DNA of 43,376 bases from Thermoleophilaceae bacterium (GCA_013813135.1 JACCSF010000088.1:1-43376); one strand, 5' to 3'; counted from the stretch's first letter, positions 4,297 to 20,947 are shown. Made by a program: numbers and translations. The notes: generated by a model not told the origin, from the letters alone.

Positions 4297-4305
4297 GCGG
4301 TGGGG

Positions 4306-4917: not shown

Positions 4918-4950
4918 CTGTATAGGTTACGTATAGATATCGTCTAGATC
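4918..4950. promoter_or_regulatory. Three tandem 11-bp direct repeats matching the CarH operator pattern
   Basis: The repeats are ctgtataggtt / acgtatagata / tcgtctagatc. Their reverse complements are aAccTatACAg, tAtcTatACGt and gAtcTagACGa, compared with the recalled consensus nAnnTnnACAn. They fill the gap between the sigma start (4917) and the photoreceptor start (4966). Confidence 0.6.
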
Positions 4951-4965
4951 AGTAAGCTCCGGGTC

Positions 4966-5820: not shown

Positions 5821-5829
5821 TGCCCCGCG

Positions 5830-6138
5830 GTGTACGTCTCTGTGTCGCGCCTGCGGGTCCCCGCGAACGCCTCTGAGGAACTGATCGCGGCGTTCCGTCG
5901 CCGCGCCCATCTGGTCGATGACGCCTACGGGTTCGTCGACCTACAAGTCTGGCGCTCCGATCGCGACGCCGGCGATATCCTCATGGTCAGTCGGTGGCAC
6001 GACCGCGAGGCCTTCAAGGCATACATGAGGAGCGCGGAGCACCGCATCTCCCACGAGCGCATCGACCCGCAGCTGCAGGCGCTGATCAAGCTCGAGGCAC
6101 TCGAGCACCTGCATACCTACGACGTGGTGGCCGAGTGA
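5830..6138 (+). CDS. Antibiotic-biosynthesis-monooxygenase (ABM) domain protein, IsdG/HmoB-like fold
   Basis: About 100 aa: YVSVSRLRVPANASEELIAAFRRR...GFVDLQVWRSDRDAGDILMVSRWHDREAFKAYMRSAEH. GTG start. Confidence 0.75.
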   Translation: MYVSVSRLRVPANASEELIAAFRRRAHLVDDAYGFVDLQVWRSDRDAGDILMVSRWHDREAFKAYMRSAEHRISHERIDPQLQALIKLEALEHLHTYDVVAE

Positions 6139-6548
6139 GCCGCGCCGGGCTCCCGCCGCGCGCGCCGAGCGGTGGCGCACCCCCCGAGGTGGCGGAGCTT
6201 CCCGGAGGCGAGCGGCTGGAGCTGGCCGCCCCGGCACGGGAGATCGCGAGCCGTCACCGGGCCGAGTTCCTCGACGAGGAGGAGCGCTACGGCGACCGCG
6301 GCCTCGAGTGGTGCGCATACGACAACCAGTGGATCCTCGCGTGGGCCGCTGCCGACGCTGCCGGGTTCGAGAACCTCGGCCGGCAGATCGAGTGGCTGGC
6401 AGGGATTCTCAACGCGCGCGGCTACCCGGTCGAGCGGCTCGCGCGCGACCTCGAGATCGCCGCCGACGTGGTCGCTCCACTGCGTGCGGTGCTGGAGTCC
6501 GGTGCGGACACGGTTCGCGCCGGCGGCGGACGGACTCCCCAGGATTGA
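6135..6548 (+). CDS. Hypothetical protein (137 aa), no family recognised
   Basis: The GTG start overlaps the ABM stop (GTGA). Strong GC3 bias. Sequence includes EWCAYDNQWILAWAAADAAGFENLGRQIEWLAGILNARGYPVERLARDLEIAADVV. Confidence 0.55.
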   Translation: MSRAGLPPRAPSGGAPPEVAELPGGERLELAAPAREIASRHRAEFLDEEERYGDRGLEWCAYDNQWILAWAAADAAGFENLGRQIEWLAGILNARGYPVERLARDLEIAADVVAPLRAVLESGADTVRAGGGRTPQD

Positions 6549-6919
6549 CCCGCGGCGACGAAGTGGAGCGCCCGCGCTTCGGGCGCCCGGACCGCCCTTC
6601 CTAGCCCGCGGCAAGAAACCAGACGACGCGCAAAGGACCAGTCGCCCGCTCTGGCCGCCGCCCGGTAAGTGTTGAGGCCGACCTCGCGGCCCCGACGTCG
6701 GCGCTGCACGATCCCCGCCGAGCGCAGAACCGCAAGGTGCTGAGAGACGTTGTGCAGGCTCTCCCCGAGGGTTTCCGCCACTGCTCCCACGGACAATTCA
6801 CCCTCGCGTTCGAGTAGATCGATGAGGCGCACCCGGATCGGCTGCCCCAGCACCCGCAGCCGATCGGCTACTGCTTCGGCCGCCCGAGCGCTCACCGGGC
6901 GAGGAAGATCGCCGGTCAT
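6422..6919 (-). CDS. ArsR/SmtB-family transcriptional regulator (C-terminal extent doubtful)
   Basis: RLRVLGQPIRVRLIDLLEREGELSVGAVAETLGESLHNVSQHLAVLRSAGIVQRRRRGREV. The last ~65 aa are Arg/Ala-rich and antisense to the 3' end of 6135..6548 (127-nt overlap). Confidence 0.7.
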   Translation of the reverse strand: MTGDLPRPVSARAAEAVADRLRVLGQPIRVRLIDLLEREGELSVGAVAETLGESLHNVSQHLAVLRSAGIVQRRRRGREVGLNTYRAAARAGDWSFARRLVSCRGLGRAVRAPEARALHFVAAGQSWGVRPPPARTVSAPDSSTARSGATTSAAISRSRASRSTG

Positions 6920-7157
6920 TCAATCGATCCGAGCCAGTAACCGTTCAAGAGCCCGACGAGCGCCCATCGGAGGTTGCGTGACACAGCTCGGCCCCGGTGG
7001 ATGACAGGCAGATCCGGCTTCCAGCCGTCCTCGATGGTTCTCGGTGTCGGGTCCGAGACTGCCAAGATCCCGTCGCCGAAGTCGGGCCATCAGGGCAGGG
7101 ACCACCTCTTCATAGTTAGCGAGATGTCCGGGTGCCTCACGGGAAACAACAGCTGGG

Positions 7158-7772
7158 CTACCCGCGTTCACCGGGCCTTGGCTCCCCGTCCTCAAGCACG
7201 GCCTTCACCGCGCGCGCGAGATCGGTTCGAAGCCCGGCTGGAAGTTTCGTGCCCGCGATCAAGTAACGACGTGCGGCCCCGTAGGGAAGGTCGAAGACGG
7301 CGAGGAGCGTTCGATCCAGTGCCGCTCGCGTTGGTCGCCCGTAGAGTCGGCGAGCGAGCTTGACGACTGCCGTCTCGATCGGGCGGTTGAGTTCTTCAAG
7401 CTCATCGGCAAGCTGCCCGCTTGGCGCTGTGCGTATTAGGTCTTCGCGCCGGAAGGAGACGAGCAAGCGGGCATCTGCGGGCTCCTGTTCGCAAAATTCC
7501 AGAATCGACTGGGCCGCCGCTAGGGCGGCGGCACGGGGGTCCTCATGCTCTAGCGCCGCCAAGAATGATGCCTGGGAGCGGCATACTGCTCGGATCCAGA
7601 GCCGCGTGAGCAGCCCGTCGCGTGAACCGAACCGGTGGTAGATCGAGCCGGTTGGCGCACCGCTCACATCGGCGATCGCCTCGACCGTCGCACTGCCCGA
7701 ACCCCGCTCGAGCAGGAGATCGCGCGCTGCGTCGAGCATGGTGTCCGAGAGATGGAGCCGGGGGCGCGGCAC
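7158..7772 (-). CDS. TetR/AcrR-family transcriptional regulator
   Basis: HTH block ATVEAIADVSGAPTGSIYHRFGSRDGLL. GTG start lies 6 nt downstream of a TAGTAT -10-like hexamer inside palindrome copy a. Confidence 0.85.
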   Translation of the reverse strand: MPRPRLHLSDTMLDAARDLLLERGSGSATVEAIADVSGAPTGSIYHRFGSRDGLLTRLWIRAVCRSQASFLAALEHEDPRAAALAAAQSILEFCEQEPADARLLVSFRREDLIRTAPSGQLADELEELNRPIETAVVKLARRLYGRPTRAALDRTLLAVFDLPYGAARRYLIAGTKLPAGLRTDLARAVKAVLEDGEPRPGERG

Positions 7773-7777
7773 ACCCC

Positions 7778-7803
7778 CATACTAGAGAAGCCGTTCTATT
7801 TTG
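7778..7803. promoter_or_regulatory. Palindrome copy a (TAGA-N8-TCTA family)
   Basis: catacTAGAgaagccgtTCTAttttg; TAGA 7783..7786, TCTA 7795..7798. Immediately upstream of the TetR gene. Confidence 0.7.
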
Positions 7804-7930
7804 TCCCTTGACGGTTCGGTTCCCCCTGCGGGCGGTCGTGGCTTGCAACGACCCCCGTGGTGAGCGAGCTTCGACGTTGGGGGCATGCCGGTGGTAGCTC
7901 TGTGCTCGAGTCTCTGTCGTTACGGGACCC

Positions 7931-8386
7931 TCAAGCGGCCGGCGTTTGAGCCGAACTCCTCGCGCGCGCAAGAAAGCGAAGGATCGCTGCCGTGTCGTAG
8001 TGAAACATCTGTGCCCTTGCGAACTTGTCGTCGCGCACCTCGTAGAGGCCCAGCACCGGCGATTCGAAGCGCTCGCCCTCGGGGCTGAGTGCGCGCTGAG
8101 TGTAGATGACCGTCACCTCGTCACCATCGGTCGCCACGACCCTCGGCTCCATCCGGCACTCGTTCTCAGTCGGCTGCAGCGGCCCCCAGGTGCCGAGCCA
8201 AGTCCGCTCAGGAGCCGACTCGAGCTGTTCGTGTAGCGCCTCCTTGCCGCGCATCACGCCTCCGTAGGGCAGCGAGCTGGCCTCATGGAACTCGACCTCG
8301 TCGTGATAGAGGTCGAAGAGCGCTTCGCGATCACGCTGCTCAACCGCTCGGAAAACCCCCAACACGACTTCGGCACTGCTGCTCAT
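7931..8386 (-). CDS. SnoaL-like / NTF2-fold protein
   Basis: MSSSAEVVLGVFRAVEQRDREALFDLYHDEVEFHE...VRDDKFARAQMFHYDT. Start chosen at the ATG preceded by GGAG; an upstream in-frame ATG at 8416 is also possible. Confidence 0.75.
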   Translation of the reverse strand: MSSSAEVVLGVFRAVEQRDREALFDLYHDEVEFHEASSLPYGGVMRGKEALHEQLESAPERTWLGTWGPLQPTENECRMEPRVVATDGDEVTVIYTQRALSPEGERFESPVLGLYEVRDDKFARAQMFHYDTAAILRFLARARSSAQTPAA

Positions 8387-8440
8387 CTCGATTGCTCCGA
8401 TCTTCGCTGTCGGCACATCCAGCTGCGCCCTGTCTCAGGC

Positions 8441-8466
8441 CATACTAGAGGAGTGATTCTAATATG
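8441..8466. promoter_or_regulatory. Palindrome copy b (TAGA-N8-TCTA family)
   Basis: catacTAGAggagtgatTCTAatatg; TAGA 8446..8449, TCTA 8458..8461. Upstream of the SnoaL-like gene. Confidence 0.7.
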
Positions 8467-8691
8467 CACGAGATGCACTCGCCGGCCCATGGTCAGCTGG
8501 TTTCGCGTGCATTGCAGCTTCGCGAGTTCCATCAGGGAGGGACAAGCCTCTGGCCGCGATCACGAAATCCTCCCCAGAGTTGCCGCCCTGACGCCGTCTC
8601 GCTCGAACTCGAGCGAACATCGTCTTTTTCGCAGGTGCCGTGGTGGCGGGGGTGCGGCATTGGTATTGGCGCACGGTGCCGCTCGTGCGGG

Positions 8692-9513
8692 TTAGCTGAC
8701 TCGTTCGGCCAGGAACTCCTCCCAGGTCCGCCGGCCTACGGCTCGCTCGGGGGCCAGGTTGGCGCCGGCCCGGAACGCGCGTGCGGCCTTGCCTGGGAGC
8801 CGGACCGGCACAATCGGCCGGTGCTTACGACGGGCCCGCAGGTACCCGCGAAGCAGCCCGGCCATCCCGTACACCTGTGGCCCGCCCATGTCGGGCACCA
8901 GCCCGGCCGGCGTGCCGAGCGTCAGTTCCACGAGTCGGGCCGCCACCTCCCCGGTGTCGATCGGCTGGAACTGGAACCCGGCCGGGGCCGGTATCACGGG
9001 CAGCCTCGCCATCTGCTGCGCTGTCATCAAGAACAGGTCATGGAACTGGGTGGCGCGCAGCGTCGTCCATGGCAGGCCGGAGTCGGCCACCACGCGCTCG
9101 GCGGCCAGCTTGGACGCGAAGTAGCCGAACATGGCGCGGTCGGCGCCGCTGACGACTGGGATCCGGTCGGCGCCGACGACCGAGATGTACACCAGGTGCC
9201 GCGTCCTGGTCCGCGACGCTGCCCGGACCAGGTTCAGGGCCTTGTCCTCGTCGCCCTTGCTGGTGCCGGCGCAGTGCACGATGATCTCGGCCCCCTCCAC
9301 CGCGGCTTCGATCCCCTCGCCCGTGGCCAGGTCACCGATCACGAACTCGATGCCCTCCCCGGCCTCGCGGCTGCTCCTGCTGAGCACCCGTACCTTGCGG
9401 CCGGCGTCCCGCAGCCGCGGGACGACGAGGCGCCCGAGTGTGCCCGTGCCGCCGGTGACAAGAATCGGACCGTGTTCGTGATCACGCCCTCCGGTGCCTG
9501 TCGTTGTGCTCAT
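8692..9513 (-). CDS. NAD(P)H-binding NmrA-like / atypical SDR oxidoreductase
   Basis: ILVTGGTGTLGRLVVPRL Rossmann motif. Start set at MSTTTG (AAGGGA upstream); the ORF extends to 9561. Confidence 0.85.
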   Translation of the reverse strand: MSTTTGTGGRDHEHGPILVTGGTGTLGRLVVPRLRDAGRKVRVLSRSSREAGEGIEFVIGDLATGEGIEAAVEGAEIIVHCAGTSKGDEDKALNLVRAASRTRTRHLVYISVVGADRIPVVSGADRAMFGYFASKLAAERVVADSGLPWTTLRATQFHDLFLMTAQQMARLPVIPAPAGFQFQPIDTGEVAARLVELTLGTPAGLVPDMGGPQVYGMAGLLRGYLRARRKHRPIVPVRLPGKAARAFRAGANLAPERAVGRRTWEEFLAERVS

Positions 9514-9608
9514 GATGCTGTCCCTTCTGGCTTTCGTAGTGGTTCGGTCGATCGGCGTCATCTCGCCGGTCTAGTCCTATGACCGATCACGAGATAGGGA
9601 TGTGACCA

Positions 9609-10467
9609 ATGCCCGACACCGACTGGCTGGCGCAGCGCTTCGAGGAGCACCGGACCCGGCTGACGGCGGTCGCCTACCGAATGCTCGGTTCGGCAAGCGA
9701 GGCCGATGACGCGGTCCAGGAGGCCTGGCTTCGACTCAGCCGCTCGGACGCGGATTCGATCGAGAACGTGGGGAGCTGGCTCACCACGGTGCTCTCGCGG
9801 GTGTGCCTGAACGTCCTGCAGGCCCGCCGCTCGCGGCCGGAGGTGCCGCTCGGCCCCGAGGCGTCCGAGCCGGCCGCCGGCCACGCCGCAGGGTCTGACC
9901 CCGAGCGCCGAGTCGATCGGGCTCGCGCTGCTGATCGTGCTCGACACGCTCTCGCCCGCAGAGCGCGTCGCGTTCGTGCTGCACGACGTGTTCGGCGTGC
10001 CATTCGAGGAGATCGCGCCGATCGTGGGACGCAGCGCACCAGCAGCGCGCCAGCTCGCAAGCCGCGCGCGCCGCCGCGTCCGGCGAGAAAACGCAAGCCG
10101 CGAGACGAACAGGCTCCGGCAGGCCAAGCTGGTCGACGCATTCCTCGCCGCCGCCCGCAACGGCGAATTCGACCGGCTGCTCGCCCTCCTCGACGCCGAC
10201 GTGGTCCTCAATGCGGACCAGACAGCGGCGCGGATGGGCGCAGCGCAGGAGATGCACGGGGCAGCTGAGGTCGCCGAATTTTCCCGGCGCGCACGCGGAG
10301 CCAAGCCAGCGCTCCTGAACGGAACAGCCGCAGCGGTATGGATGCCGGGCGGGCAGCTACGGGTCGTTTACGACTTCACGATCAGCGGCGAAAAGATCAC
10401 CGCCATCGACCTGATCGCAGACCCAGCGCGTCTCCGCCAGCTCGACTTGGTGATCCCGAACGACTGA
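9609..10467 (+). pseudogene. ECF41 (SigJ-like) sigma factor with SnoaL-like C-terminal extension; frameshifted near 9900
   Basis: Frame 1 gives MPDTDWLAQRFEEHRTRLTAVAYRMLGSASEADDAVQEAWLRL...SWLTTVLSRVCLNVL...DPE. Frame 2 continues AESIGLALLIVLDTLSPAERVAFVLHDVFGVPFEEIAPIVGRS...ITAIDLIADPARLRQLDL. Confidence 0.75.
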
Positions 10468-10479
10468 CCACCGCCCGAT

Positions 10480-10950
10480 CGATATGAATCGCGCGGGGAT
10501 ACCACAGTCGTGTCGAAGGCCCCCGCTCGGGCGCACAATCGCGGGTTCGACCACGGTCAGCGCCCAGTAGATCGACCGCGTCGCGCCCCCAACGCAAACC
10601 AACCGCGTGGGGCGTGGAATTCTCGCGATCACAACTGGTAGTTCCGATGATCGTTGACACCTCTACGCCGAGGCCGGTCGATTGCGTGTACCCGATCTGT
10701 CTCCGAGGGGAGGAGGACATCGCAGCGTTCCTCTCGTCGGTTGGACGCTCCGGGAACGGGGAAGGGTTCCAGGCCCAGCTCATTCCCAGCTCAGCCGCTA
10801 GCTCGCCTGCGAGGTTCACGCCTTCGTCGGCCCAGACCTCCTGCAGCCCACAGATGTCCGGCTTGGCTTCGAGCAGAACCGAACGTATGGCCGCGGCTCG
10901 ATCCGCCACCGGCCGAAGCGCCACCATAGGTTCCAGGTGACCACGCGAAT
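10480..10950 (-). pseudogene. Endonuclease/exonuclease/phosphatase (EEP) family remnant, frameshifted and internally deleted
   Basis: IRVVTWNLWWRFG in one frame, then AAIRSVLLEAKPDICGLQEVWADEGVNLAGELAAELGMSWAW in another. Only weak C-terminal traces remain. Boundaries are approximate. Confidence 0.5.
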
Positions 10951-10974
10951 GCCCGCGGCCGGCGTGCTCGCACC

Positions 10975-11493
10975 TGCCGCTGCGCTCAACCGCTCGAACT
11001 CGCTGGCGGCCTCAATGCCCGTCATCCCGCCACCGCAGACCGCAGCTACTGAGCCTTCCGGCAGCTCGCTCAGAGCGTCGTTCAGCCGAGCCGCAGACTC
11101 AGGGCTCGCGAGCGAGTGGGCGTGTTCGCTGACGCCAGGAACCGACTCGGCGTCGATCGTGCTGCCCGTCGCGAGGATGACGAAGTCGAAGGGAATGCTC
11201 GCGTGCTCATCGCTTCCGCGAACGCGCACGAGTGATCGGGCGGTGTCGATCTCGTAAGCCTCGCCGCGGACGTTGGTCACCTTACGACCCGTCAACTTGC
11301 TGAGGTTGTAGCTGCGAACCTTCTGCCCCGCAGCAGCCTGATGCAGGCGCAAGCGCTGAACGAGCTCGGCTCTGGGATCGATGAGCGTGACCTCTGCGCC
11401 GCGGCGGGCGCGGCCGGCCACGCGCACGGCGGCCATAGCTCCGGCGTAGCCGCCGCCGACCACAACGACCTTCTGCGGATGCTCGATCTTCAC
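10975..11493 (-). pseudogene. NAD(P)/FAD-dependent oxidoreductase (NDH-2-like), N-terminal half only
   Basis: GTG start with AGGAGG 6 nt upstream. KVVVVGGGYAGAMAA first Rossmann motif. The gene ends just after the second one (AAVCGGGMTGIEAASEF) and is fused in-frame to EEP sequence. Confidence 0.65.
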
Positions 11494-11636
11494 GTTGGCC
11501 CTCCTGTTCGGCACCGTCGTGCACTTAGACGAGACAGGGCCGGCCTGTGACAAATCAGGCGGAGCCTCGAGCTTCAACTCCTGCGATGACCGTCCATCGA
11601 CCGCCATCGAGCCTCATGTGAGGGCCACCGCATCTG

Positions 11637-12299
11637 TTAGCCCGCGCTCGCGACAGCCGCGGGCTCCCGCAGCCAGGTGACGCTTGCAAGCAGGATCCAG
11701 ACAAGCCACATCCCGAGCGGCAACGCTATCCCTCCGATCAGGCCGTTGCCCGAGTTGAGCGGACCGGTCAGTGACAGCACGCCTCCGATCGCCCCCACAT
11801 TCGCCAGCGCCCCAGCCACCGCCAGCCACCCGAGCCAGCGACTGAACGCGCCGGAGAAGCAGAGCGCCGCCAGTGCGGCGAAGAAGGCCACGCCCGCGAA
11901 GGCCGCTGGGGCGGCGAGCAGGAACCCGGCGGTGTGCAACTCGTACGTCGTCTGGGAGCCTGCGGAATCGAACAGCAGCGCAGCCGCTGCATCAAGGCCG
12001 AGTGCCACGTTTAGGGCGGTCATGAACATCACGGCGCTTGCGAAGACGACCCACGGGAGCGGACCCTCGCCGGCTTCCGTCCACAGGCGCTCGAGCAGTC
12101 CACCTAGGAACACGAGCAGCGGAAGGTAGCCCACGCTCACGCACATGATCACCGCCTGCAGCAGATCGGTGTGGGCCCGGTAGAACGGAGCTACTTCGGC
12201 TCGTGATTCAAGGCCGGGCAGGAGCGGGATCACGAAGGCCATCGGCGCCCACAGGATCGCGAGCGCGATGCCGCTAGCCGGAACCCAACGGCGACTCAA
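11637..12299 (-). CDS. Integral membrane protein, family not recognised
   Basis: About 6 hydrophobic segments. TTG start with GGAG 6 nt upstream. Palindrome copy d lies about 45 nt upstream. Confidence 0.6.
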   Translation of the reverse strand: MSRRWVPASGIALAILWAPMAFVIPLLPGLESRAEVAPFYRAHTDLLQAVIMCVSVGYLPLLVFLGGLLERLWTEAGEGPLPWVVFASAVMFMTALNVALGLDAAAALLFDSAGSQTTYELHTAGFLLAAPAAFAGVAFFAALAALCFSGAFSRWLGWLAVAGALANVGAIGGVLSLTGPLNSGNGLIGGIALPLGMWLVWILLASVTWLREPAAVASAG

Positions 12300-12342
12300 G
12301 TCTGGCTCCGTTCGCTCAGTCGCGCCGGGTGCATGCGTGTTC

Positions 12343-12368
12343 CATAATAGAGGATGTGTTCTACTATG
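12343..12368. promoter_or_regulatory. Palindrome copy d (TAGA-N8-TCTA family)
   Basis: cataaTAGAggatgtgtTCTActatg; TAGA 12348..12351, TCTA 12360..12363. Confidence 0.7.
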
Positions 12369-12394
12369 CTGCTGAGGCCACCCTGGACGTAGTG

Positions 12395-12790
12395 CTAATC
12401 GCTCTTCTTGAGTCTCCGAGCGGCCCATTCGGGGGCCAGAATCGACATCACTGCCAGCGATACAAAGGACTTGTGAGCTCCGAGCGCCCCGAAGGCATGG
12501 TCCAAGACAAGCGGGAGGGCTGGCCGCCCCAGGCCCTTGCCCGGCGGGGAGACCACGATCCTGCGCATCTCGATACTGCGGTTCTTGTCCAGGATTCCGG
12601 CAAGGAGGACGAACCCGACCGGGCGATCGTCGTCGGCGACGAGCAGGTGTGCCTGATCGGGGTCGTCAAGCGCGCGCTCATGCTCGTGTCGCGACCTGGG
12701 CAGGATGAAGTCTGCGGCTTCCGGATCGGACTCGGCCGAGAGCACGAAGTCGTGCTCGGCGGTCCCGGTGCCGCGAAGGTGCAGGGCCAT
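12395..12790 (-). CDS. GNAT-family N-acetyltransferase (C-terminus looks atypical)
   Basis: VGFVLLAGILDKNRSIEMRRIVVSPPGKGLGRPAL is the acetyl-CoA motif A region. The tail after GAHK does not look like a normal GNAT C-terminus. Confidence 0.65.
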   Translation of the reverse strand: MALHLRGTGTAEHDFVLSAESDPEAADFILPRSRHEHERALDDPDQAHLLVADDDRPVGFVLLAGILDKNRSIEMRRIVVSPPGKGLGRPALPLVLDHAFGALGAHKSFVSLAVMSILAPEWAARRLKKSD

Positions 12791-13028
12791 CCTTACGAGC
12801 CGGCCTGCAGCCTTCTCGGCTGGATGAGGTCAGACCGGCGCTCAGGATCGCTCTCGGACACGAGGTCGGCAGGCTCGGGACTCACGTCGACCGGCGGCTT
12901 TGGCACGGTCGCTGGATTGGTGGCTCGCCCGTGCGGCGGGCACCGCGGGTCGTAGCTTTCGGAACCTCGTGAACCGGCCGCCGGGACCTGGGAAGCGGCG
13001 CCGCTCTCGCCCCTGGGAATCTTCACGG

Positions 13029-13241
13029 CTAGGGGTCGTCGACGCCGTGGCCACGGTCAAGTCCTCCGTCGGGGACGGCCGGCGGGGCAGGGCGTTCGGT
13101 CGTCTCCGCCGGCGCGGCGGGACGCTCGGCCGGCGGGCGGGAGGGCATGGGGCGCGTGGGTTCGTTGTCGCCACCGCAGCCGGCGATAAGTGCGGGGAGC
13201 ACGAGCGCGGCGGCGATGCGGACGGGCGCGCTGCGCATCAT
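13029..13241 (-). CDS. Small Pro-rich lipoprotein (possibly frameshifted; may continue in ORF 12793..13026)
   Basis: MMRSAPVRIAAALVLPALIAGCGG lipobox. The ATG overlaps the sigma stop (ATGA). A second Pro-rich ORF in another frame runs on to the GNAT start. Confidence 0.45.
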   Translation of the reverse strand: MMRSAPVRIAAALVLPALIAGCGGDNEPTRPMPSRPPAERPAAPAETTERPAPPAVPDGGLDRGHGVDDP

Positions 13242-14225
13242 TCCTGGCCCGGTTCAAGCGCGGAAGAGGCGCCGGAGCCCGCCCTGCGCACCCCGGCGCG
13301 CAGGATCTGCTTGAGGTCCGCTGTCGGCCCTAGGTGCCGCAGCTTGTCCGGGTTGACGATCGAGCGAACCGTCTGCACCACGTGGTCGGCAACATCGAGC
13401 GAGACGACATTGACCAGTTGTCCCTCCGAGTTGAAGAACGCTGCCCCGGGCTGGCCGTTGATCTCGAGCCGACGAAGCTCGAGACCCAGGCGCTGAGCGC
13501 TCGCGACGAGATTCACCAGCACGCCGGCCACGCGCTCACGGCCATAGACGGGTCGGGACAGCGCGGGTGCCTTGCCACCGTCATCGCCGTGGAGCACCAC
13601 GTCGGCCGCGAGGATCTCGGTCAACCCTTCGAGGTCGCCCTCTTCATAGGCAGCGAAGAACCGTCCGGCGAGCTCCTCGCGCCGCTCCCGAGACGCAGCG
13701 AATCGTGGCTTGCGCTCATCCACGCGACGCCGGGCGTGGACCGCAAGCTGCCGGCGGTTGTCCTCGGTCTTGTCCACGATCTCAGCGATCTCGCTGAACG
13801 ACAAGTCGAACACATCGCGCAGCAAAAGCACGCCTCGCTCGACCGGTGACAGGCTCTCGAGCAGCACGAGGAACGCCTGCGAGATGGAGTCGGCGAACTC
13901 GACCGGATCCTCGAATTCGGTCACCAGAGGCTCGGGTAGCCATTCGCCGACGTACTCCTCGCGGCGCACCCGCGCCGAACGCAGGTGGTCGATGCTCAGC
14001 CGCGTGACGACCGTCGACAGCCAGGCCCTCGGAGACGTGACCTCGCTCGGCGCCTGCCTCGCCACCTCGACGCAGAAACGCCTCCTGAGCGATGTCCTCG
14101 GCGTGGCTGACGCTGCCAACCATCCGGTACGCAATCGAGAAGAGAAGCGGTCGCAGCTCCTCATGCCTCGTCTCGGGCTGCTCCCGGGGCGGCTTCGGAG
14201 ATTTGCCCTCATGCGCCTCGCCCAT
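13238..14225 (-). pseudogene. Second ECF41 (SigJ-like) sigma factor; frameshifted near 14070
   Basis: Frame A gives MGEAHEGKSPKPPREQPETRHEELRPLLFSIAYRMVGSVSHAEDIAQEAFLR. Frame B gives VEVARQAPSEVTSPRAWLSTVVTRLSIDHLRSARVRREEYVGEWLPEP...LSPVERGVLLLRDVFDLSFSEIAEIV...VRSIVNPDKLRHLG. Confidence 0.75.
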
Positions 14226-14231
14226 GATGCA

Positions 14232-14257
14232 CATAGTAGAGGACCGCCTCTAGTATG
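14232..14257. promoter_or_regulatory. Palindrome copy c (TAGA-N8-TCTA family)
   Basis: catagTAGAggaccgccTCTAgtatg; TAGA 14237..14240, TCTA 14249..14252. On the minus strand, TACTAT lies 7 nt upstream of the sigma ATG at 14225. Confidence 0.7.
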
Positions 14258-14469
14258 AAGCCGATCGATGACGCTTGACACTGCGGATCGGAATCTCGGT
14301 CTCGGCCGTTTCGCAATCCAAAGGTCTTCCTCTGGGCCAACTGGGCTGGCAAACGCGGGCGCCCAGGAGTGCAGTCGCTCGCGGTCGCCAACGAGACCGA
14401 GGACTTGTCGCCGGCGACATCTTGGTGGTGATGATTGGGTGTCGGATCGCTTTGCGCGCTCTCGTGTCT

Positions 14470-14497
14470 GGTATTAGAATGCAGCATCTATAATACC
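14470..14497. promoter_or_regulatory. Palindrome copy f (TAGA-N8-TCTA family) with an embedded TATAAT
   Basis: ggtatTAGAatgcagcaTCTAtaatacc; TAGA 14475..14478, TCTA 14487..14490, TATAAT 14489..14494. About 80 nt upstream of the hydrolase start. Confidence 0.65.
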
Positions 14498-14577
14498 TTC
14501 CTCGGCAGGCAGCGGCTCCTCGCCACGACGGTCGGCTACCACCGGAGAGAACGTGTACGCAAGCGCATGAGGGAACC

Positions 14578-15418
14578 ATGAACGACGGTAACGAGGAGAT
14601 CCGCGAGCACGGCGTGGAGGTGTCCGGAGGGAAGTTCGCGATCAGCGAGCTCGGTGACCCCGCGGGGCAGCCGGTCGTCTACTGCCACGGCGGCCTGAAC
14701 TCGCGGCGCGACATCCACTTCGCCGCGCGAGTCGCGCGGCGCGCGGGCGTGCGGATACTGGCCATCGACCGCCCGGGGATCGGGGGCTCGACCCCACAGC
14801 GCGAGCGGACCCTCTCGACGTGGGGCGGGGATGTTGAGCGGGTTGCGGACGCGCTGGAGCTAGATCGCTTTACGGTGCTCGGCTGGTCCTTCGGAGGGCC
14901 CTTCGCACTCGCGTGCGCCTCAGTGCTCGGGACTCGCGTTGGAGCCGTGGGGATCGTCGGCGGAATGACACCGCTCGACCGGCCAGGCAAGGCGGACGAA
15001 CTCGGAACCGCAATAGGGCGAAGGCTGCTGCGCTGGGCCCCGAAGAGACCACGGGCAGCGGCGGCGTACCTCGCCAGCAGCAAGCTCGAACCGGCTGGGC
15101 TGCTGTACCGACAAGTCCGATCCGAGCTTCCCGCATCCGACGCGAAGGTACTTGACGGTCTCGGTCGAACAGCCGCGACCGCGCCTTTCCGCGAGGCTAT
15201 CCGCCGCACCCGGGTCGGATCGGGTGCGCTGGTGGCATGGGGATGAAGACACGTTCGTGCCGCTCGCCCACGCCCAGTACCTCGCGGCTCGCTTACCAGG
15301 GTCAAAGCTCACCGTCGTCTCGGGAGCCGGCCACTACGTACTCCACCGCGAGACCGGAGCGATCCTCACCGAGCTCGCCGCGGCATCCGACGTCGCGCCT
15401 GCCGAAGATCGGGCGTAA
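14578..15418 (+). pseudogene. Alpha/beta-fold hydrolase, frameshift/deletion near 15220
   Basis: HGGLNSR, the nucleophile elbow GWSFGG, then a stop after REAIRRTRVGSGALVAWG. The C-terminal block RVRWWHGDEDTFVPLAHAQYLAARLPGSKLTVVSGAGHYV continues in the +1 frame (ORF 15152..15418). Confidence 0.7.
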
Positions 15419-15517
15419 GGCCGTGTCGAGGCGGCAAGCTCCCGCAACCCTGGAGCCCTCCCGTTGCGCCGCCAGCGTCACGAGGTCGGGTCCTTGAGCT
15501 CGCTCAGCGACCGCACC

Positions 15518-15838
15518 ATGACGGAGCCCGTCGCCTGGGGTCCGGGCTGCCTGGCGTGGTCCTTCATGTCTGGGCCTGACCTGACCGTAAAGAGCGAGCG
15601 GATGATGCCGCCAGCCAGCGAGGAACTGCACGTGCACGACCGGGCACGGCAGTTCTTCTTCGTCTTGGCCGGGCATGCGCGCCTGACGTTCGGCGGCCGG
15701 GCGGTCGAGCTGGTCGAGCAGCAGGGGCTCGAGGTGCCCCCCGGCACGCCGCACCGGATCGAGGCCGTTGGCTCAGCGACCCTAGATTTTCTGGTCGTCT
15801 CGGCGCCTGCGGCCGACAACGATCGGCGGTCCGCGTGA
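15518..15838 (+). CDS. Cupin-domain protein
   Basis: EELHVHDRARQFFFVLAGHARLTF...VPPGTPHRIEAVG. Start set at MTEPVAW. Confidence 0.7.
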   Translation: MTEPVAWGPGCLAWSFMSGPDLTVKSERMMPPASEELHVHDRARQFFFVLAGHARLTFGGRAVELVEQQGLEVPPGTPHRIEAVGSATLDFLVVSAPAADNDRRSA

Positions 15839-16722
15839 GCCAGGCGACGACCGTCGGCCTCATCGGTCTCGGCGCGATGGGCTCGCGCCTCGGGATGCGC
15901 CTGTGCGAGGCGGGCCACGAGCTCGTCATTTGGAATCGGACCCCGGGCAAACTCGAGCCACTCCTCGCCGCCGGCGGCCGGGCGGCCGCCACGCCGGGCG
16001 ACGCGGCACGGGCGGCGCAGGTGACGATCACCATGCTCAGCGACGCAAGCGCGTTGGAGGCCGTCATCGAGGGGCCACAGGGCCTGGCGGCCGGCCTGCG
16101 GCCCGACGCGGTGCTGATCGACATGTCGACGATCGGCCCCGCCGCCGCCACGTGGCTTCGGTCGGCTGTGCCGAATGGCGTCGGCGTCCTCGACGCCCCC
16201 GTGCTCGGGAGCGTCGCCGAGGCGCAGGCGGGAACGCTGCGGATCCTCGTCGGCGGTCCCCCAGATCTCGTGGAGGCTTGGCGGCCGCTCCTCGAGGTGC
16301 TCGGTGTGCCGGTGCACCTAGGACCAGCCGGAGCGGGAGCGGCCGCCAAGCTGGTCGTCAACGCCTCGCTCTTCGGGGTGCTCGGCGTGCTCGCCGAGGC
16401 CGTGGCCCTTGCCGACAGCCTCGGCCTGTCTCGTAAGGCGACGTTCGAGAGCCTGTCGCTGACGCCCCTCGCCGAACAGGCGTCACGGCGCCGCCGGGTC
16501 ATCGAGACCGACCCGCCGAAGACGCGGTTCGCGCTGTCGCTCGCCCGCAAGGACGCCGAGCTCGTCGCTCAGGCCGCGGCGGCGGTGGGCTTGGACCTTC
16601 GCCTTGCGCGCGCCGCCGGCACGTGGCTGGCCGACGCCGAGCGCGGCGGTCACGGAGGGGATGACTACACCATGCTGCTGCGCTGGATCATCGCGGCGCA
16701 GAGGAACCCTCCCGCTCAATGA
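15835..16722 (+). CDS. NAD(P)-dependent oxidoreductase, 3-hydroxyisobutyrate/6-phosphogluconate dehydrogenase-like
   Basis: VGLIGLGAMGSRLGMRL, DAPVLGS and GAGAAAKLVVN. The GTG start overlaps the cupin stop (GTGA). Confidence 0.85.
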   Translation: MSQATTVGLIGLGAMGSRLGMRLCEAGHELVIWNRTPGKLEPLLAAGGRAAATPGDAARAAQVTITMLSDASALEAVIEGPQGLAAGLRPDAVLIDMSTIGPAAATWLRSAVPNGVGVLDAPVLGSVAEAQAGTLRILVGGPPDLVEAWRPLLEVLGVPVHLGPAGAGAAAKLVVNASLFGVLGVLAEAVALADSLGLSRKATFESLSLTPLAEQASRRRRVIETDPPKTRFALSLARKDAELVAQAAAAVGLDLRLARAAGTWLADAERGGHGGDDYTMLLRWIIAAQRNPPAQ

Positions 16723-16778
16723 CCTTGTTTGATCACGCACCGTGAGCGACCGTGCTGCACGAGCGCCCCGAAGCCCGC

Positions 16779-17040
16779 ATGAGCGATCGCTACGAGATGA
16801 TTGGCCAGGGCTATGCGGCGACGCGCCGCGAGGACCGACGGATCGCCCACCGGATCTACGAAGCACTCGGCGACGCGAGCAGCGTCGTCAACGTCGGCGC
16901 GGGCACTGGTTCCTACGAGCCAGCCGACCGCTACGTCATCGCCATCGAGCCCAGCGATGTGATGGCCGCGCAGCGCCGGCCCCACCGCGTCCCGGCAATT
17001 CGCGCCGCGGCGGACGACCTGCCTTTGCGCGACCCCATGA
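16779..17040 (+). pseudogene. Class I SAM methyltransferase, N-terminal fragment
   Basis: MSDRYEMIGQGYAATRRED...VVNVGAGTGSYEP...IEPSDVMAAQR...LPLRD. Methyltransferase similarity is then lost; the ORF runs on to 17150 as junk. Confidence 0.5.
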
Positions 17041-17163
17041 CGCCTCCCTGTCGTCTTTGCTCGCCGGTGGCGGCCGGACCTCGAGGTGCCAGACGCCAGG
17101 TGCAGCCACCGCAAGCGGGTAATAGGGGATCTGTGCTAGAACGACCATAGCGCGCAGGTTCTC

Positions 17164-17799
17164 GTGAGCGCGCCGCTAACCAACTCCCCGTGTTCAACAA
17201 CATTTGCCGCGCTCGATCCTGCGGCCGATGTCGTGGAGGTCGCTCGCTCTCGCGTCCCCGGTGGAGACATCCGTGTCGGCTCGGCCGAGGCTCTTCCCTT
17301 CGCCGACGGGGAATTTGATGCCGTCCTGGCCCAGCTCGTCGTCAACCTTGTCGACGATCCGCGGGCGGCGGTCCGGGAGATGGCGCGAGTAGCAAGGTCT
17401 GGAGCCGTGGTCGCTGGCAGCTTCTGGGATGACGAGGAGATGCCACTGCTGCGCTCGTTCTGGAACGCGGCGCGCTTCGCCGCCCCGGCCGAGCTGGCAG
17501 AGGTCAGCCAGCAGGCCCGGGTTGGTCTGGCCGAAGTAGCCGTCCTGTGTCGATGGTGGGAAGGAGCGGGCCTACGCGAGATCGAGCTCGACAAGTTCGA
17601 AGTCCATGCAGACTACGACGGCTTCGATGACCTCTTCTTCTCGTTCGAGGCCGGCATGGGCGAGTCGGGTGCGCTTTATGTGTCCTTGGACGAGAAACAG
17701 AGGGCGGCCCTGCGATCCGAAGCTCATCGGCTCCTCGGCTCACCGGATGGCCCGTTCCGCCTAACCGCCGGCGCCTGGACAGTGCGCGGCGAGCGCTAG
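17164..17799 (+). pseudogene. SAM methyltransferase lacking the N-terminal SAM-binding motif (C-terminal two-thirds)
   Basis: Begins at the post-motif-I region (LDPAADVVEVARSRVPGGDIRVGSAEALPFADGEFDAVLAQLVVNLVDDPRAAVREMARVARSGAVV). No GxGxG motif is present. Confidence 0.55.
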
Positions 17800-17868
17800 C
17801 CAGTCAGTCGCCACCTGGCTCGACCGGCAGCCCGCGGCGCTCCATGCTGAAAGCCGCAACCGCCCAGA

Positions 17869-18159
17869 TCACGAAGCCTCGATGATTCGCAGGTCACGCT
17901 CTGCGCCGTCTCCGAGCGCTCGAAGTGCTCGTTGATACGCGGGGCTCTCGTATGCGGCGACAGCGTCTTCGACACTGTCGAACTCAATTAGGACTGTGCG
18001 CTCCAGAACGCCGGCCTCGAACGCCCTTGCGGGCATCCCCCGTGCCAGGAAATGACCTCCCGACTCACGCATGGCCGGGCCAGCGAGATCGATGTACTCG
18101 GTGAGCTTCTTCGGATCGCGGATTGCACGAAACGTGTTGATCCAGTACGCCTTGGCCAC
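17869..18159 (-). CDS. DUF1330-domain protein
   Basis: VAKAYWINTFRAIRDPKKLTEYIDLAGPAMRESGGHFLARG...LIEFDSVEDAVAAYESPAYQRAL. GTG start with GAAAGGA upstream. Confidence 0.75.
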   Translation of the reverse strand: MAKAYWINTFRAIRDPKKLTEYIDLAGPAMRESGGHFLARGMPARAFEAGVLERTVLIEFDSVEDAVAAYESPAYQRALRALGDGAERDLRIIEAS

Positions 18160-18250
18160 ATCATCCTTTCTAGTCGCTAGCGAGTTAAGCGGGCCATCGC
18201 GCGACAATGGAACCAGACTCCTTGGCAAGCGGCGGCGGTCCACGCGGACA

Positions 18251-18276
18251 AATATTAGATTGAGTACTCTAATTCG
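18251..18276. promoter_or_regulatory. Palindrome copy e (TAGA-N8-TCTA family)
   Basis: aatatTAGAttgagtacTCTAattcg; TAGA 18256..18259, TCTA 18268..18271. Lies in the divergent gap between the DUF1330 and isochorismatase-like genes. Confidence 0.65.
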
Positions 18277-18324: not shown

Positions 18325-18819
18325 GTGGGGGTCCGCACTCACGAGGAAACCGAGTGGCAGAGACGAGGCTGGCCACTGATTTTCGTTCGCCATGACTCCG
18401 TGGAAGCCGGCTCTCCGCTTCGGCCGGAGCTGCCCGGAAACGCGTTCAAGCCCGAACTGGACGGTGTCGAGCCCGATCTGCTCGTTGTCAAGCGGACGAA
18501 CTCCTCGTTCTACGGGAAGCCGGACCTGAAGGAGTGGCTCGACAGTCGAGGTCTGCATACGCTCGTGCTCTGCGGGATCAGCACCAATCACTGCGTCGAG
18601 ACGGCGGCACGGATGGGCTCGAACCTGGGCTACGACATACGCTTCGTCCTCGACGCCACCCACGCCTTCGAGCGCACCGGGCCGGACGGGCGGACTCTCA
18701 CTGCCGACGAGCTCGCCCAGGCCACGGCCACCAGCCCGCACGGGGAGTTCGCCCAGATCGTGAGCACGGGTGATCTCCTCGACGCCTCCGGGAGCGGCGC
18801 GGTTTGGCGCGGACGATGA
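18325..18819 (+). CDS. Isochorismatase/cysteine-hydrolase family protein lacking the usual N-terminal segment
   Basis: WPLIFVRHDS...LLVVKRTNSSFYGKPDLKEWLDSRGLHTLVLCGISTNHCVETAARMGSNLGYDIRFVLDAT. GTG start with AAAGGAG 7 nt upstream. No LLVIDxQ-type first strand. Confidence 0.7.
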   Translation: MGVRTHEETEWQRRGWPLIFVRHDSVEAGSPLRPELPGNAFKPELDGVEPDLLVVKRTNSSFYGKPDLKEWLDSRGLHTLVLCGISTNHCVETAARMGSNLGYDIRFVLDATHAFERTGPDGRTLTADELAQATATSPHGEFAQIVSTGDLLDASGSGAVWRGR

Positions 18820-19641: not shown

Positions 19642-20108
19642 CTAACGAGGGTCGAGGATCACAATCGGGATCTTCCGGCCCTTTGCGTTGCGCTGGAAGA
19701 AGAAGTCATATCCGGGATAGAACGCGACGAACTTCGGCCAGAGCCGATCGCGCTCCTCATCGGTTGCGACGCGAGCGCGAACGTCGCGAATCACGGAGCC
19801 GATCTGAAATCGCAGCGTCCGGGTTGGCCTTGACGTTGTGGAACCACGCGGGATGCGTTGGCTGACCACCCTTCGACGCCATCACAGCGACGACGTCGCC
19901 GTTCTCGTGGTACAAGTGCGCTCCTGGCGCCCGTGTGGTCGAGCAGGAGGATCCGCGCCGAGGACCAGCCGGGAAGGTGCCCGCCGAGCTTGCCGCCGGT
20001 GCGCCGGTAAAGAGCCACATGGATCTTCGTCGAGCGCCGGCCGAGGTAAAGGCCGTGCTTGTTGGCGAACTGAGAGCTCGAGGCCGCGATCCGCGCGAGC
20101 AAGGGCAT
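19642..20108 (-). pseudogene. Deazaflavin (F420)-dependent nitroreductase-family protein (DUF385), two frameshifts
   Basis: Three frames carry consecutive blocks. First: MPLLARIAASSSQFANKHGLYLGRRSTKIHVALYRRTGGKLGG...ILLLDHTGARS. Second: HLYHENGDVVAVMASKGGQPTHPAWFHNVKANPDAAI. Third: VRARVATDEERDRLWPKFVAFYPGYDFFFQRNAKGRKIPIVILDPR. Confidence 0.7.
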
Positions 20109-20168
20109 GCCGCTACTCGAATGTCACGCGACGCCGCCACTGATCACAGAGATTCTCTGCACGGAGAG

Positions 20169-20203
20169 GATCATACGTTCCAATTAGATCATACGTTCCA
20201 ATT
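20169..20203. repeat. Tandem direct repeat, 2 x 17 nt with 18-nt period
   Basis: gatcatacgttccaatt (20169..20185), then a, then gatcatacgttccaatt (20187..20203). A/T-rich, in the gap upstream of the nitroreductase pseudogene. Confidence 0.9.
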
Positions 20204-20220
20204 GGGTCTGTCTTGATCGG

Positions 20221-20856
20221 CTAGGGCCGAGAGGATTCGCGGGACTTTTGGAGGGCGACCGAGTTCTGCATTTGCAGGGCTTTCTCATGCGTGGAGCCAA
20301 GAGGCGAGCCGACTGCGACGCCGCCTTGCTTATGCCGTGCTGACGGCGCCAAGGATTGCATCGCCGCGTGGCGCATGCGGGCCGTCTTGCTGTCCGGCTC
20401 GTCAGTGTTCAGCCCGTAGGCCGCAAGCTCGGGCAACGTGACGACTTCGCCGAACCCTGCCCAGTGGCCGTTGGTGATCTGCCGCAGGTGGACCCAGACG
20501 CGGTGGGCCTCGACCATCGTGTTCTCGCTGCCCTCCGCGGCCAGAACCGCCGCGGTGACGCGCTTGACGAGCGTCTCGCGGCCGCGTTCCGCAAGCGGAC
20601 CGAATACTCCCGGCGCGCCTTCGGGGATCGTGACGGTTACGCGGTAGATCGGCTTCGGGTTGATCTGGCCGCCGACGAACACGTCCTGCTCGTTGACGAA
20701 GCACCAGGAAAGCGCCTGCATGTGCGCGACATCCCCGAAGCGGGCGAGGGGCGCGGCCTCGACCTCGAGCGCGATCGTCGACAGCTCGCCGGCGAGTCGC
20801 TGCTTCGTGGCGTCGTCCAACGCCCCTTTTGTGGTTGTGAGTTCGATCATCGGCAC
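20221..20856 (-). CDS. Tautomerase-superfamily protein with a long C-terminal extension
   Basis: A GTG start with GGAGG 7 nt upstream gives M-PMIELTTTKGALDDATKQRLAGELS, with the catalytic Pro right after fMet. The last ~70 aa are low-complexity and not tautomerase-like. Confidence 0.65.
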   Translation of the reverse strand: MPMIELTTTKGALDDATKQRLAGELSTIALEVEAAPLARFGDVAHMQALSWCFVNEQDVFVGGQINPKPIYRVTVTIPEGAPGVFGPLAERGRETLVKRVTAAVLAAEGSENTMVEAHRVWVHLRQITNGHWAGFGEVVTLPELAAYGLNTDEPDSKTARMRHAAMQSLAPSARHKQGGVAVGSPLGSTHEKALQMQNSVALQKSRESSRP

Positions 20857-20931
20857 GACAGGACCTCCGGTGATGGTGTGTTCGTCAATCGTGAGCCACC
20901 GCGGCTCGCTCAGCCGGCCAATAAGATAACA

Positions 20932-20947
20932 TACACGCATGCATGTA
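20932..20947. promoter_or_regulatory. Near-perfect 16-bp palindrome, candidate TetR operator
   Basis: tacacgcatgcatgta (14 of 16 positions symmetric). It overlaps the TetR ATG, in the divergent gap to the tautomerase gene. Confidence 0.45.

Follow-up and report, generated by a model that had tools for sequence, protein, structure and literature searches.

Six palindromes in promoter gaps of a Thermoleophilaceae bacterium are the probable operators of a neighboring TetR-family repressor

The window analyzed in this study is the complete 43,376-nucleotide stretch of Thermoleophilaceae DNA. A TetR-family regulator is encoded on its minus strand (7158..7772), beside a minus-strand gene for a SnoaL_2/NTF2-like protein (7931..8416; Pfam SnoaL_2, E=3e-12) whose start is more probably at 8386 than at 8416, which gives a leader of about 50 nt. 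Also on the minus strand are a gene for a strongly hydrophobic, multi-pass membrane protein that matches no Pfam family (11637..12299) and an operon (12395..14225) encoding an ECF41-like sigma factor with a SnoaL_2 extension (13238-14225), a small lipoprotein (13029-13241) and a GNAT protein (12395-12790). A gene call in L001 supports the membrane-protein start at 12299, as does a homologue of 88% identity whose alignment begins at residue 1. The sigma factor, whose N-terminus read from 14225 is MGEAHEG...ELRPLLFSIAYRMVGS, begins where the sequence-only reading had placed it, but its frame is broken near position 14075. An alpha/beta-hydrolase gene on the plus strand (14578..15246) is followed on the same strand by genes for a cupin and a 6PGDH-like dehydrogenase. 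Finally, a DUF1330 gene (17869..18207, minus) diverges from an isochorismatase-family gene (18325..18819, plus), and a DCC1-like gene follows the latter.

The gaps at the 5' ends of these genes carry copies of the palindrome TAGA-N8-TCTA. A search of the window with the pattern TAGANNNNNNNNTCTA returns exactly six copies, starting at 7783, 8446, 12348, 14237, 14475 and 18256, whereas dinucleotide-preserving shuffles yield a mean of 0.02 and never more than one. All six lie outside supported coding sequence, and the remaining 33 kb of the window, despite its many gene starts, contains none. The 24-bp pattern ATANTAGA-N8-TCTANTAT matches these six places and nothing else in the whole window, even when three mismatches are allowed. 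The sequence-only reading had claimed six perfect copies, no others, all intergenic, with well under one expected by chance and with flanks too unrelated for a MITE or a duplication, and all of these claims hold. Its 26-bp consensus, said to fit four copies, fits three exactly; site 1 deviates, reading TTTG where the consensus has TATG.

We also scored the window with a weight matrix whose training sites all came from other loci. The six sites score between 28.6 and 34.2 bits, and shuffled windows have a mean maximum of 8.8 bits and an overall maximum of 18.4. Conservation reaches past the 16-bp core to the ATAn and nTAT flanks, which carry an information content of 1.2-1.3 bits per position, such that the extended form (c)ATAnTAGAG-N6-CTCTAnTAT(g) is conserved over about 24 bp in total. 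Position 5 of the half-site is G in 80 and A in 57 of 156 half-sites (137 together).

Site 1 (7778..7803, core 7783-7798, 30.6 bits) occupies the promoter of the TetR gene itself, where the minus-strand -10 hexamer TAGTAT (7784-7779) is followed after 6 nt by the GTG start codon at 7772. Site 2 (8441..8466, 32.5 bits) is upstream of the minus-strand SnoaL_2 gene and includes the -10 hexamer TAGTAT (8447-8442). Site 3 (12343..12368, 34.2 bits) lies after the GNAT stop codon and ahead of the membrane-protein start at 12299, with the minus-strand hexamer TATTAT (12349-12344). Site 4 (14232..14257, 29.5 bits) presents the minus-strand hexamer TACTAT 7 nt upstream of the sigma factor ATG at 14225; this spacing and that at site 1 had both been given correctly before. 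Site 5 (14470..14497, 28.6 bits), upstream of the alpha/beta-hydrolase gene, carries TATAAT (14489-14494), which leaves a leader of about 77 nt with the Shine-Dalgarno sequence GAGGGA before the ATG at 14578. Site 6 (18251..18276, 30.1 bits) separates the two divergent genes, with the minus-strand hexamer TAATAT directed toward DUF1330 and a weak plus-strand hexamer, TAATTC, directed toward the isochorismatase-like gene, which has the Shine-Dalgarno sequence GAAAGGAG before its GTG at 18325.

The next-best positions in the window are 20185 (18.2 bits, inside the shuffle range) and 17123 (17.2 bits, borderline). The first, TAGA-N8-TCCA at 20185..20200, is a possible weak seventh site. An 18-bp tandem duplication creates it at its junction, and an F420H2 quinone reductase gene, itself frameshifted, starts 45 bp downstream, at 20140. 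Its single mismatch is equivalent to that of the TGGA-N8-TCTA variant, which many orthologous TetR promoters carry. The second, TAGG-N8-GCTA at 17123..17138, is a possible degenerate site located 40 bp before a methyltransferase ORF at 17164, whose homologues in other loci stand directly behind a perfect site.

The protein encoded at 7158-7772 begins MPRPRLHLSD and matches Pfam TetR_N (PF00440, E=6.5e-11) over residues 13-57; its recognition helix is GAPTGSIYHRF. An AlphaFold model (pLDDT 84.1) has ten helices in the all-helical, two-domain fold of TetR proteins, and TetR-family structures make up all of its best 50 Foldseek matches (TM-score 0.44-0.75), at 23% identity or less to any solved TetR protein. 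Its C-terminal domain matched no Pfam TetR_C family, and searches of PDB and NCBIfam gave no named close relative and no matching NCBIfam model. An exact look-up of the 204-aa protein gave no match because public gene callers use the start ATG 7739. The subfamily comprises about 490 clusters at 50% identity.

Two comparison sets connect this subfamily to the palindrome. The first consists of 80 soil metagenome loci (462 kb) chosen because they carry a relative of the TetR protein. In these loci the motif occurs 87 times at a spacing of N8 and zero to five times at each other spacing from 0 to 20, as predicted for the site of a dimeric protein. Sites are densest close to the TetR gene, at 1.72 per kb in the first 100 bp, and thin out to 0.03-0.06 per kb at distances above 5 kb. 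Footprinting of orthologous promoters, as the sequence-only reading had proposed, reveals that most orthologues of at least 56% identity keep a copy with at most one mismatch, placed 22-39 bp upstream of the TetR start codon. In the commonest layout, the hexamer ends 6 nt before ATG or GTG followed by CCN, which encodes the conserved N-terminus MP. The helix GAP(T/S)GS(I/M/V/L)YHRF and the N-terminus MPRP persist together with the motif down to 32% overall identity. A recognizable site has been lost from several orthologous promoters (L007/L009/L012, L017, L027, L030/L031, L038-L040, L043). In a sister clade (46-50% identity), whose helix reads GAPPGSIYYRF, the ATG is abutted only by a degenerate TAGA-N8-AYTA, which is suggestive of co-variation between helix and operator, although not clean enough to serve as evidence.

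The second set was selected by the motif only, by scanning about 185,000 genomes with ATANTAGAG-N6-CTCTANTAT; the matches are a sample rather than a census. At least 30 matches fall in loci of more than 55% GC, where chance matches are negligible. Among the matches listed, a full-length TetR homologue (31-88% identity) is present in 21 of the 30 high-GC loci, and in 14 of the 30 the site abuts the TetR gene, 2-46 nt before its start codon. One of the remaining nine high-GC loci, L136, has only a weak partial TetR match. For comparison, just 1 of 89 low-GC chance loci listed has a TetR homologue. The listed high-GC carriers include members of Mycolicibacterium, Mycobacterium, Streptomyces, Embleya, Rhodococcus, Paenarthrobacter, Acidimicrobiia and Thermoleophilia. 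The genome-wide search that had been suggested recovers the same TetR subfamily beside the motif across Actinomycetota among the matches listed.

The genes controlled are less constant than the regulator. A SnoaL homologue is present in 42 of the 80 TetR-selected loci, and in other loci 26 SnoaL homologues lie directly behind a site. The genes that follow sites belong to the families SnoaL_2, ECH_1, Abhydrolase, Exo_endo_phos, DUF2867, CMD and methyltransferase. Relatives do not share the site that precedes the ECF41 gene, with the exception of one doubtful case (L082). The comparison supports the undescribed local regulon proposed earlier, with the qualification that only its TetR and SnoaL targets are conserved and its remaining members are particular to the studied genome.

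Given these observations, we judge it roughly 85% probable that the TetR-family repressor encoded at 7158-7772 has the palindrome as its operator. This protein had already been proposed as the binder, and orthologous promoters, the N8 spacing, the density near the TetR gene and the genome scan all argue for it at the level of sequence. Specifically, a TetR dimer would set its two recognition helices on the TAGAG half-sites, whose centers are about 11 bp apart. The bound repressor would cover the -10 element and part of the spacer, and in this way would keep RNA polymerase from the promoter. Besides its own gene, which is leaderless, and the SnoaL_2 gene next to it, the repressor would silence four more transcription units within 10.5 kb: the membrane protein gene, the ECF41-lipoprotein-GNAT operon, the alpha/beta-hydrolase gene and those after it, and the divergent genes for DUF1330 and the isochorismatase-like protein. 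By analogy with other TetR proteins, a small ligand in the C-terminal domain presumably releases the repressor. Binding, ligand induction, and repression as opposed to activation are all three inferred.

Some features of the locus count against an operator. The sites extend as far as 10.5 kb from the regulator gene, and six or seven are many for a TetR protein. In addition, several supposed targets in the studied genome are disrupted genes.

The proposed occlusion of -10 elements agrees with the way in which the palindrome is constructed. Reading outward, a TAnnnT hexamer is formed by the outer four bases of the half-site together with the TA of the core. Since one stretch serves as both outer half-site and -10 hexamer, RNA polymerase would be blocked wherever a dimer is bound. 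An outward TAnnnT is found in 58 of 81 half-sites that face a recurrent gene family versus 27 of 83 other half-sites, a bias that points to promoter function laid over an operator. No sigma-70-type -35/-10 pair or terminator between 7000 and 19000 passed a consensus scan, and the -10 hexamers are consequently the sole basis of the promoter assignment.

An arrangement in which the TetR protein acts as an activator at some sites, or binds as a pair of dimers on the 24-26-bp palindrome, seems unlikely. About 24 conserved base pairs are long for one dimer, and two QacR dimers do occupy a 28-bp site that contains TATAGA...TCTATA. However, the -10 overlap at every site is the geometry of a repressor, promoter function explains part of the flank conservation, and McbR uses the same 16-bp frame. 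Contacts to the flanks could alternatively be explained by the conserved basic N-terminal arm (MPRPR).

Somewhat less probable still is a different binder, either the ArsR protein (6422-6919), the second TetR protein (20939-21610) or a global factor encoded elsewhere, with the first TetR gene merely a target. Such a protein might account for sites located up to 10 kb from the TetR gene, and for the 9 of 30 listed high-GC matches that have no TetR homologue within a fixed 8-kb block, some of these blocks being cut at the edge. A global factor, however, would not explain why 70% of the sites, sampled at random, stand next to a single TetR subfamily in several classes of actinobacteria. We rejected ArsR as the binder, as it never co-occurs with the motif in the loci compared; homologues are found in 0 of 80 TetR-selected and 0 of 119 motif-selected loci among the matches listed. 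The second TetR was rejected as a member of another subfamily (TetR_C_13), and a tblastn search with the first TetR misses it.

It is highly improbable that no dedicated protein is involved and that the palindrome is a lineage-typical promoter architecture of two back-to-back -10 hexamers for divergent transcription. The outer half-sites do supply good hexamers (TATAAT, TACTAT, TAGAAT, TAATAT), two of them 6-7 nt before start codons. Yet TAGA and TCTA are invariant at a strict N8 when only two of the four bases belong to the hexamer, and half-sites that face no gene keep TAGA while often losing the final T of the hexamer. The absence of copies from the other 33 kb and the association of the motif with one TetR subfamily likewise speak against mere promoters. 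Remnants of a MITE or REP-like element, suggested by a short inverted repeat in several gaps, and chance matches can be dismissed, since 60-bp flanks on each side are only 10-42% identical between sites (the background for this composition), spacers are unrelated, target-site duplications are absent, 0.02 copies are expected and orthologous promoters in different classes retain the motif.

A more speculative extension of the operator interpretation, which we consider possible but doubtful, is that the 26-bp palindrome constitutes a self-contained, portable promoter-plus-operator cassette in which each half-site has its own outward -10 element. If true, a gene that acquires this one short stretch would gain a promoter, frequently leaderless, along with TetR control. 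This would explain the fast turnover of regulons around a constant TetR-SnoaL_2 core across Actinomycetota, the six or seven copies within about 10 kb in both the studied genome and L023, and the presence of an ECF41-type sigma factor under the repressor here, which would form a two-tier cascade.

As a repressor operator, the six palindromes are very probably the sites where the neighboring TetR protein represses its own gene together with five or more transcription units nearby. This would be a switch of the ordinary bacterial kind, and the palindrome/TetR pair does not reveal a new kind of mechanism; the TetR subfamily and its site appear to be undescribed. The assignment gives a DNA site and a conserved partner gene (SnoaL_2/NTF2-like) to a previously uncharacterized TetR subfamily that is spread in soil Actinomycetota, including culturable Mycolicibacterium, Mycobacterium, Streptomyces, Embleya, Rhodococcus and Paenarthrobacter, where the predicted regulon can be tested at once. 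It also illustrates cleanly how half of an operator can serve at the same time as a -10 hexamer.

In the TetR paradigm, an autoregulated repressor binds a palindromic operator over its promoter and is released by a ligand. The system described here shares the TetR_N helix-turn-helix, the all-helical fold, the palindrome in its own promoter and the neighboring regulated gene. Unlike tetO, which is present in one or two copies with half-sites in the opposite orientation (TCTATCA..TGATAGA), there are six or seven operators, and the partner is a SnoaL_2 protein rather than an efflux pump. QacR IR1 (CTTATAGACCGATCGATCGGTCTATAAG) is a long palindrome whose TATAGA...TCTATA resembles the extended half-site ATAnTAGA, but its TAGA-TCTA spacing is 12 rather than 8, and it serves two dimers and an efflux pump in Firmicutes.

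The KstR motif is TnnAACnnGTTnnA, and the AmtR box, CTAT-N6-ATAG, has the same letters as the palindrome in inverse arrangement. KstR and KstR2 are actinobacterial TetR repressors with a short palindrome before many genes (PMC1995591; PMC3068626), as is the case for the TetR-family repressor AmtR (PMC2723105). Their motifs differ from ours and their regulons are known metabolic pathways, whereas membership here turns over quickly.

A search of the text of the literature for TAGAG-N6-CTCTA and TAGA-N8-TCTA returned only the McbR box. The earlier reading could match the motif to no operator it knew, but a precedent exists, as its frame is that of the McbR box. McbR, a TetR-family protein of Corynebacterium glutamicum, recognizes TAGAC-N6-GTCTA and governs a multi-operon regulon (PMC2723105; PMC9210681). 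Both systems thus involve a TetR-family repressor in an actinobacterium, an identical 16-bp frame, and several unlinked or neighboring units. In this comparison of sites, the McbR box has C at position 5, found here in only 8 of 156 half-sites, and the ATAn flanks that double as -10 hexamers are conserved at the sites studied here. The targets differ as well, with McbR controlling sulphur, methionine and cysteine genes, and SnoaL_2 proteins, hydrolases, crotonases and methyltransferases standing behind the sites described in this report.

Across its 43,376 bp, the window contains precisely six copies of the palindrome TAGA-N8-TCTA (at 7783, 8446, 12348, 14237, 14475 and 18256), whereas dinucleotide-preserving shuffles yield a mean of 0.02 and a maximum of 1. 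This pattern search confirms the six copies that had been found by eye. Moreover, the longer pattern ATANTAGA-N8-TCTANTAT recovers the identical six sites and no extras in the window with up to 3 mismatches allowed. When a weight matrix is built solely from the sites of other loci, with none from the window, the six score 28.6-34.2 bits, and the next-ranking window positions (18.2 bits at 20185 and 17.2 bits at 17123) both fall inside the range of shuffled sequence. The copies are not a repeated element, as had been argued from their unrelated flanks, because their 60-bp flanks are only 10-42% identical from site to site, the background level at about 68% GC.

Our gene map combines GC3-filtered ORFs, Pfam matches and public gene calls on a MAG contig (GCA_020063725.1) that is 99.97% identical to the window. 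All six sites reside in gaps at the 5′ ends of genes, in agreement with the sequence-only reading. On the minus strand, site 1 faces the TetR-family regulator gene (7158-7772), whose start codon is confirmed by an N-terminus, MP(R)P, that is conserved among relatives. Also on the minus strand, site 2 faces a SnoaL_2 protein (7931-8416), site 3 a membrane protein (11637-12299) and site 4 a series encoding an ECF41-like sigma factor, a lipoprotein and a GNAT protein (12395-14225). Site 5 faces an alpha/beta hydrolase on the plus strand (14578-15246), and site 6 lies between the divergent genes for a DUF1330 protein (17869-18207, minus) and an isochorismatase-like protein (18325-18819, plus). ECF41 sigma factors are typically paired with oxidoreductase or epimerase genes, and the divergent NmrA/epimerase-like gene (8692-9561, minus) and second ECF41 paralogue (9609-10467, plus) resemble such a pairing; TAGA-N8-TCTA is absent between these two genes.

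A comparison of 80 soil-metagenome loci (462 kb), chosen for TetR relatives of 39-92% identity, supports the prediction that the palindrome is a protein-binding site. The N8 spacing occurs 87 times in these loci and each other spacing from 0 to 20 occurs 0-5 times, a strictness that we read as the prediction for a dimeric DNA-binding protein. The symmetrised half-site is c-R-T-W-n-T-A-G-A-R.

Several observations point to the TetR as the binder, as originally proposed. The motif reaches a density of 1.72 sites per kb in the 100 bp closest to the TetR gene, declining to 0.03-0.06 per kb at distances above 5 kb. Among orthologues with 56% identity or more, most have the palindrome, either intact or with one mismatch, 22-39 bp ahead of the TetR start codon, such that the footprinting suggested as a check finds it retained. 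TGGA-N8-TCTA is a frequent one-mismatch form, and the commonest layout has the hexamer described below 6 nt before the start. Because these loci were picked via the TetR gene, we also ran the reverse, unbiased test by scanning about 185,000 species-representative genomes for the motif alone (ATANTAGAG-N6-CTCTANTAT). Among the 119 matches listed, 89 are in low-GC genomes, where an A/T-rich pattern is expected by chance, and 30 are in genomes above 55% GC, in which chance matches contribute negligibly. A full-length TetR homologue (31-88% identity) is present in 21 of these 30 high-GC loci, with the site 2-46 nt before its start codon in 14 of the 21, whereas the 89 low-GC loci listed include a single one with such a homologue. 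Carrier genomes were covered as pieces of 8-20 kb. Among the carriers are Mycolicibacterium tusciae, Mycobacterium deserti, Streptomyces sp., Embleya sp., Rhodococcus sp., Paenarthrobacter sp., Nesterenkonia, Acidimicrobiia, Thermoleophilaceae and Solirubrobacterales. The recognition helix GAP(T/S)GS(I/M/V/L)YHRF and the N-terminal MPRP are constant down to 32% overall identity. Together, these comparative data support the interpretation of the palindrome as the operator of this TetR.

Two other local regulators could be imagined as binders. The second TetR-family protein (20939-21610; TetR_N plus a weak TetR_C_13 match) is rejected since it belongs to a different subfamily. The palindrome is missing at its gene, which is divergent from an unannotated 239-aa ORF (20221-20940) and presumably has an operator of its own. 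The ArsR neighbour is likewise rejected, its homologue being absent from all 80 TetR-selected and all 119 listed motif-selected loci. Separately, a sister clade of the TetR (L055-L064, 46-50% identity) has the recognition helix GAPPGSIYYRF and a conserved upstream sequence, TTTTAGTCA-N4-GTTTTAGAATGA-N3-GATTATT-ATG, that contains only a degenerate TAGA-N8-AYTA abutting the start codon. Judging from these sequences, operator specificity may have shifted in this clade.

The TetR carries a TetR_N domain (Pfam), and structure prediction gives it a TetR fold with good confidence (pLDDT 84). The protein is at most 23% identical to any solved structure, and searches of Pfam TetR_C families, NCBIfam models and PDB sequences gave no match or no close match. 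Its binding, repression and induction are what we infer. The TA of each TAGA/TCTA core together with the four outer bases forms an outward hexamer, which is a proper TAnnnT in 58 of 81 half-sites facing a recurrent gene family versus 27 of 83 other half-sites, most commonly TATAAT, TACTAT, TAGAAT or TAATAT in the former. Thus, operator and -10 element appear superimposed, which favors the occlusion mechanism suggested earlier. The remainder of the palindrome would fall in the promoter spacer and, with the operator on top of the -10 element, a TetR dimer predicted to bind there would keep RNA polymerase out, which is the classical geometry of a TetR repressor. At the TetR and ECF41 genes, only 6-7 nt separate the end of the hexamer from the start codon, and the spacings first reported (TAGTAT-6 nt-GTG at 7772 and TACTAT-7 nt-ATG at 14225) are both correct. 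In Actinobacteria, such a distance implies leaderless transcripts, as in mycobacterial TSS maps, and we presume that both transcripts are leaderless.

Clustering the genes behind sites over all loci places the TetR itself first (45 loci, 46 genes), followed by three groups of SnoaL_2/NTF2-like proteins (26, 11 and 7 loci) and enoyl-CoA hydratase (9 loci). Alpha/beta hydrolase, Exo_endo_phos, DUF2867, CMD, an SRPBCC-like protein and methyltransferase occur in smaller numbers of loci. From these counts, the predicted regulon core is TetR plus SnoaL_2. The two stay together despite rearrangement, being tandem in the window, convergent in L011 and divergent in mycobacteria. Non-core members vary between genomes, and relatives do not retain the palindrome in front of the ECF41 gene. 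Six perfect sites are likewise found within 11 kb (2164-13128) of a related soil contig (L023) whose TetR is 71% identical, indicating that multi-site local regulons recur in the subfamily; the genes behind these sites include the TetR, an amine-oxidase-like gene and a divergent SnoaL_2/crotonase pair. In M. tusciae (L117, 3274-3299), a divergent SnoaL_2 ORF is readable from the CAT at the palindrome edge (CATAATAGAG...), and thus the conserved CAT/ATG that ends the 26-bp consensus may in some cases serve as a genuine start codon. A GTG lying six codons downstream is an alternative start for this ORF.

Several genes between 9609 and 20140 are disrupted. The ECF41-like sigma gene (13238-14225) and its paralogue (9609-10467) have frameshifts near 14075 and 9900, respectively, the methyltransferase gene is split (16752-17150 and 17164-17799), as is the F420H2 quinone reductase gene (19642-19869 and 19757-20140), and a Pyr_redox_2 gene (10816-11607) is truncated. 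Two independent public assemblies are identical to the window where they cover it (L001, 5835-19710; L002, 15514-19710), including both ECF41 frameshifts and the methyltransferase split, and therefore these three genes are probably real pseudogenes. The MAG contig, although 99.97% identical elsewhere, lacks the 934 bp at 19711-20644, and a Logan contig stops exactly at 19710; the disrupted quinone reductase gene contains either an indel or an assembly break here. A perfect 18-bp tandem duplication at 20169-20203 (GATCATACGTTCCAATTA x1.9) creates at its junction the TAGA-N8-TCCA noted earlier within this repeat, at 20185, with 45 bp between it and the start of the quinone reductase gene. The same one-mismatch variant is tolerated in many orthologous TetR promoters, and the site may be either a weak operator of recent origin or a target for another regulator.

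A literature search for TAGAG-N6-CTCTA or TAGA-N8-TCTA found no paper. The sequence-only reading had recognised no matching operator, but there is a precedent. McbR (Cg3253), a TetR-family repressor with a multi-operon regulon in Corynebacterium glutamicum, recognizes TAGAC-N6-GTCTA (PMC2723105, PMC9210681), and its box shares the 16-bp frame of the palindrome. Compared by operators and targets, the two differ in that the fifth half-site position is occupied here by G or A, and by C in just 8 of 156 cases, in that the flanks are conserved here, and in that the targets here are unrelated to sulphur metabolism. The TetR subfamily (about 486 clusters at 50% identity, E<=1e-10) is uncharacterised. 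Its comparative evidence is unusually clean and yields predictions that can be tested in culturable actinomycetes, carriers of this kind being M. tusciae DSM 44338, M. deserti and Embleya sp. AB8. The type of system to which it belongs is thoroughly familiar, and its mechanism holds nothing surprising.
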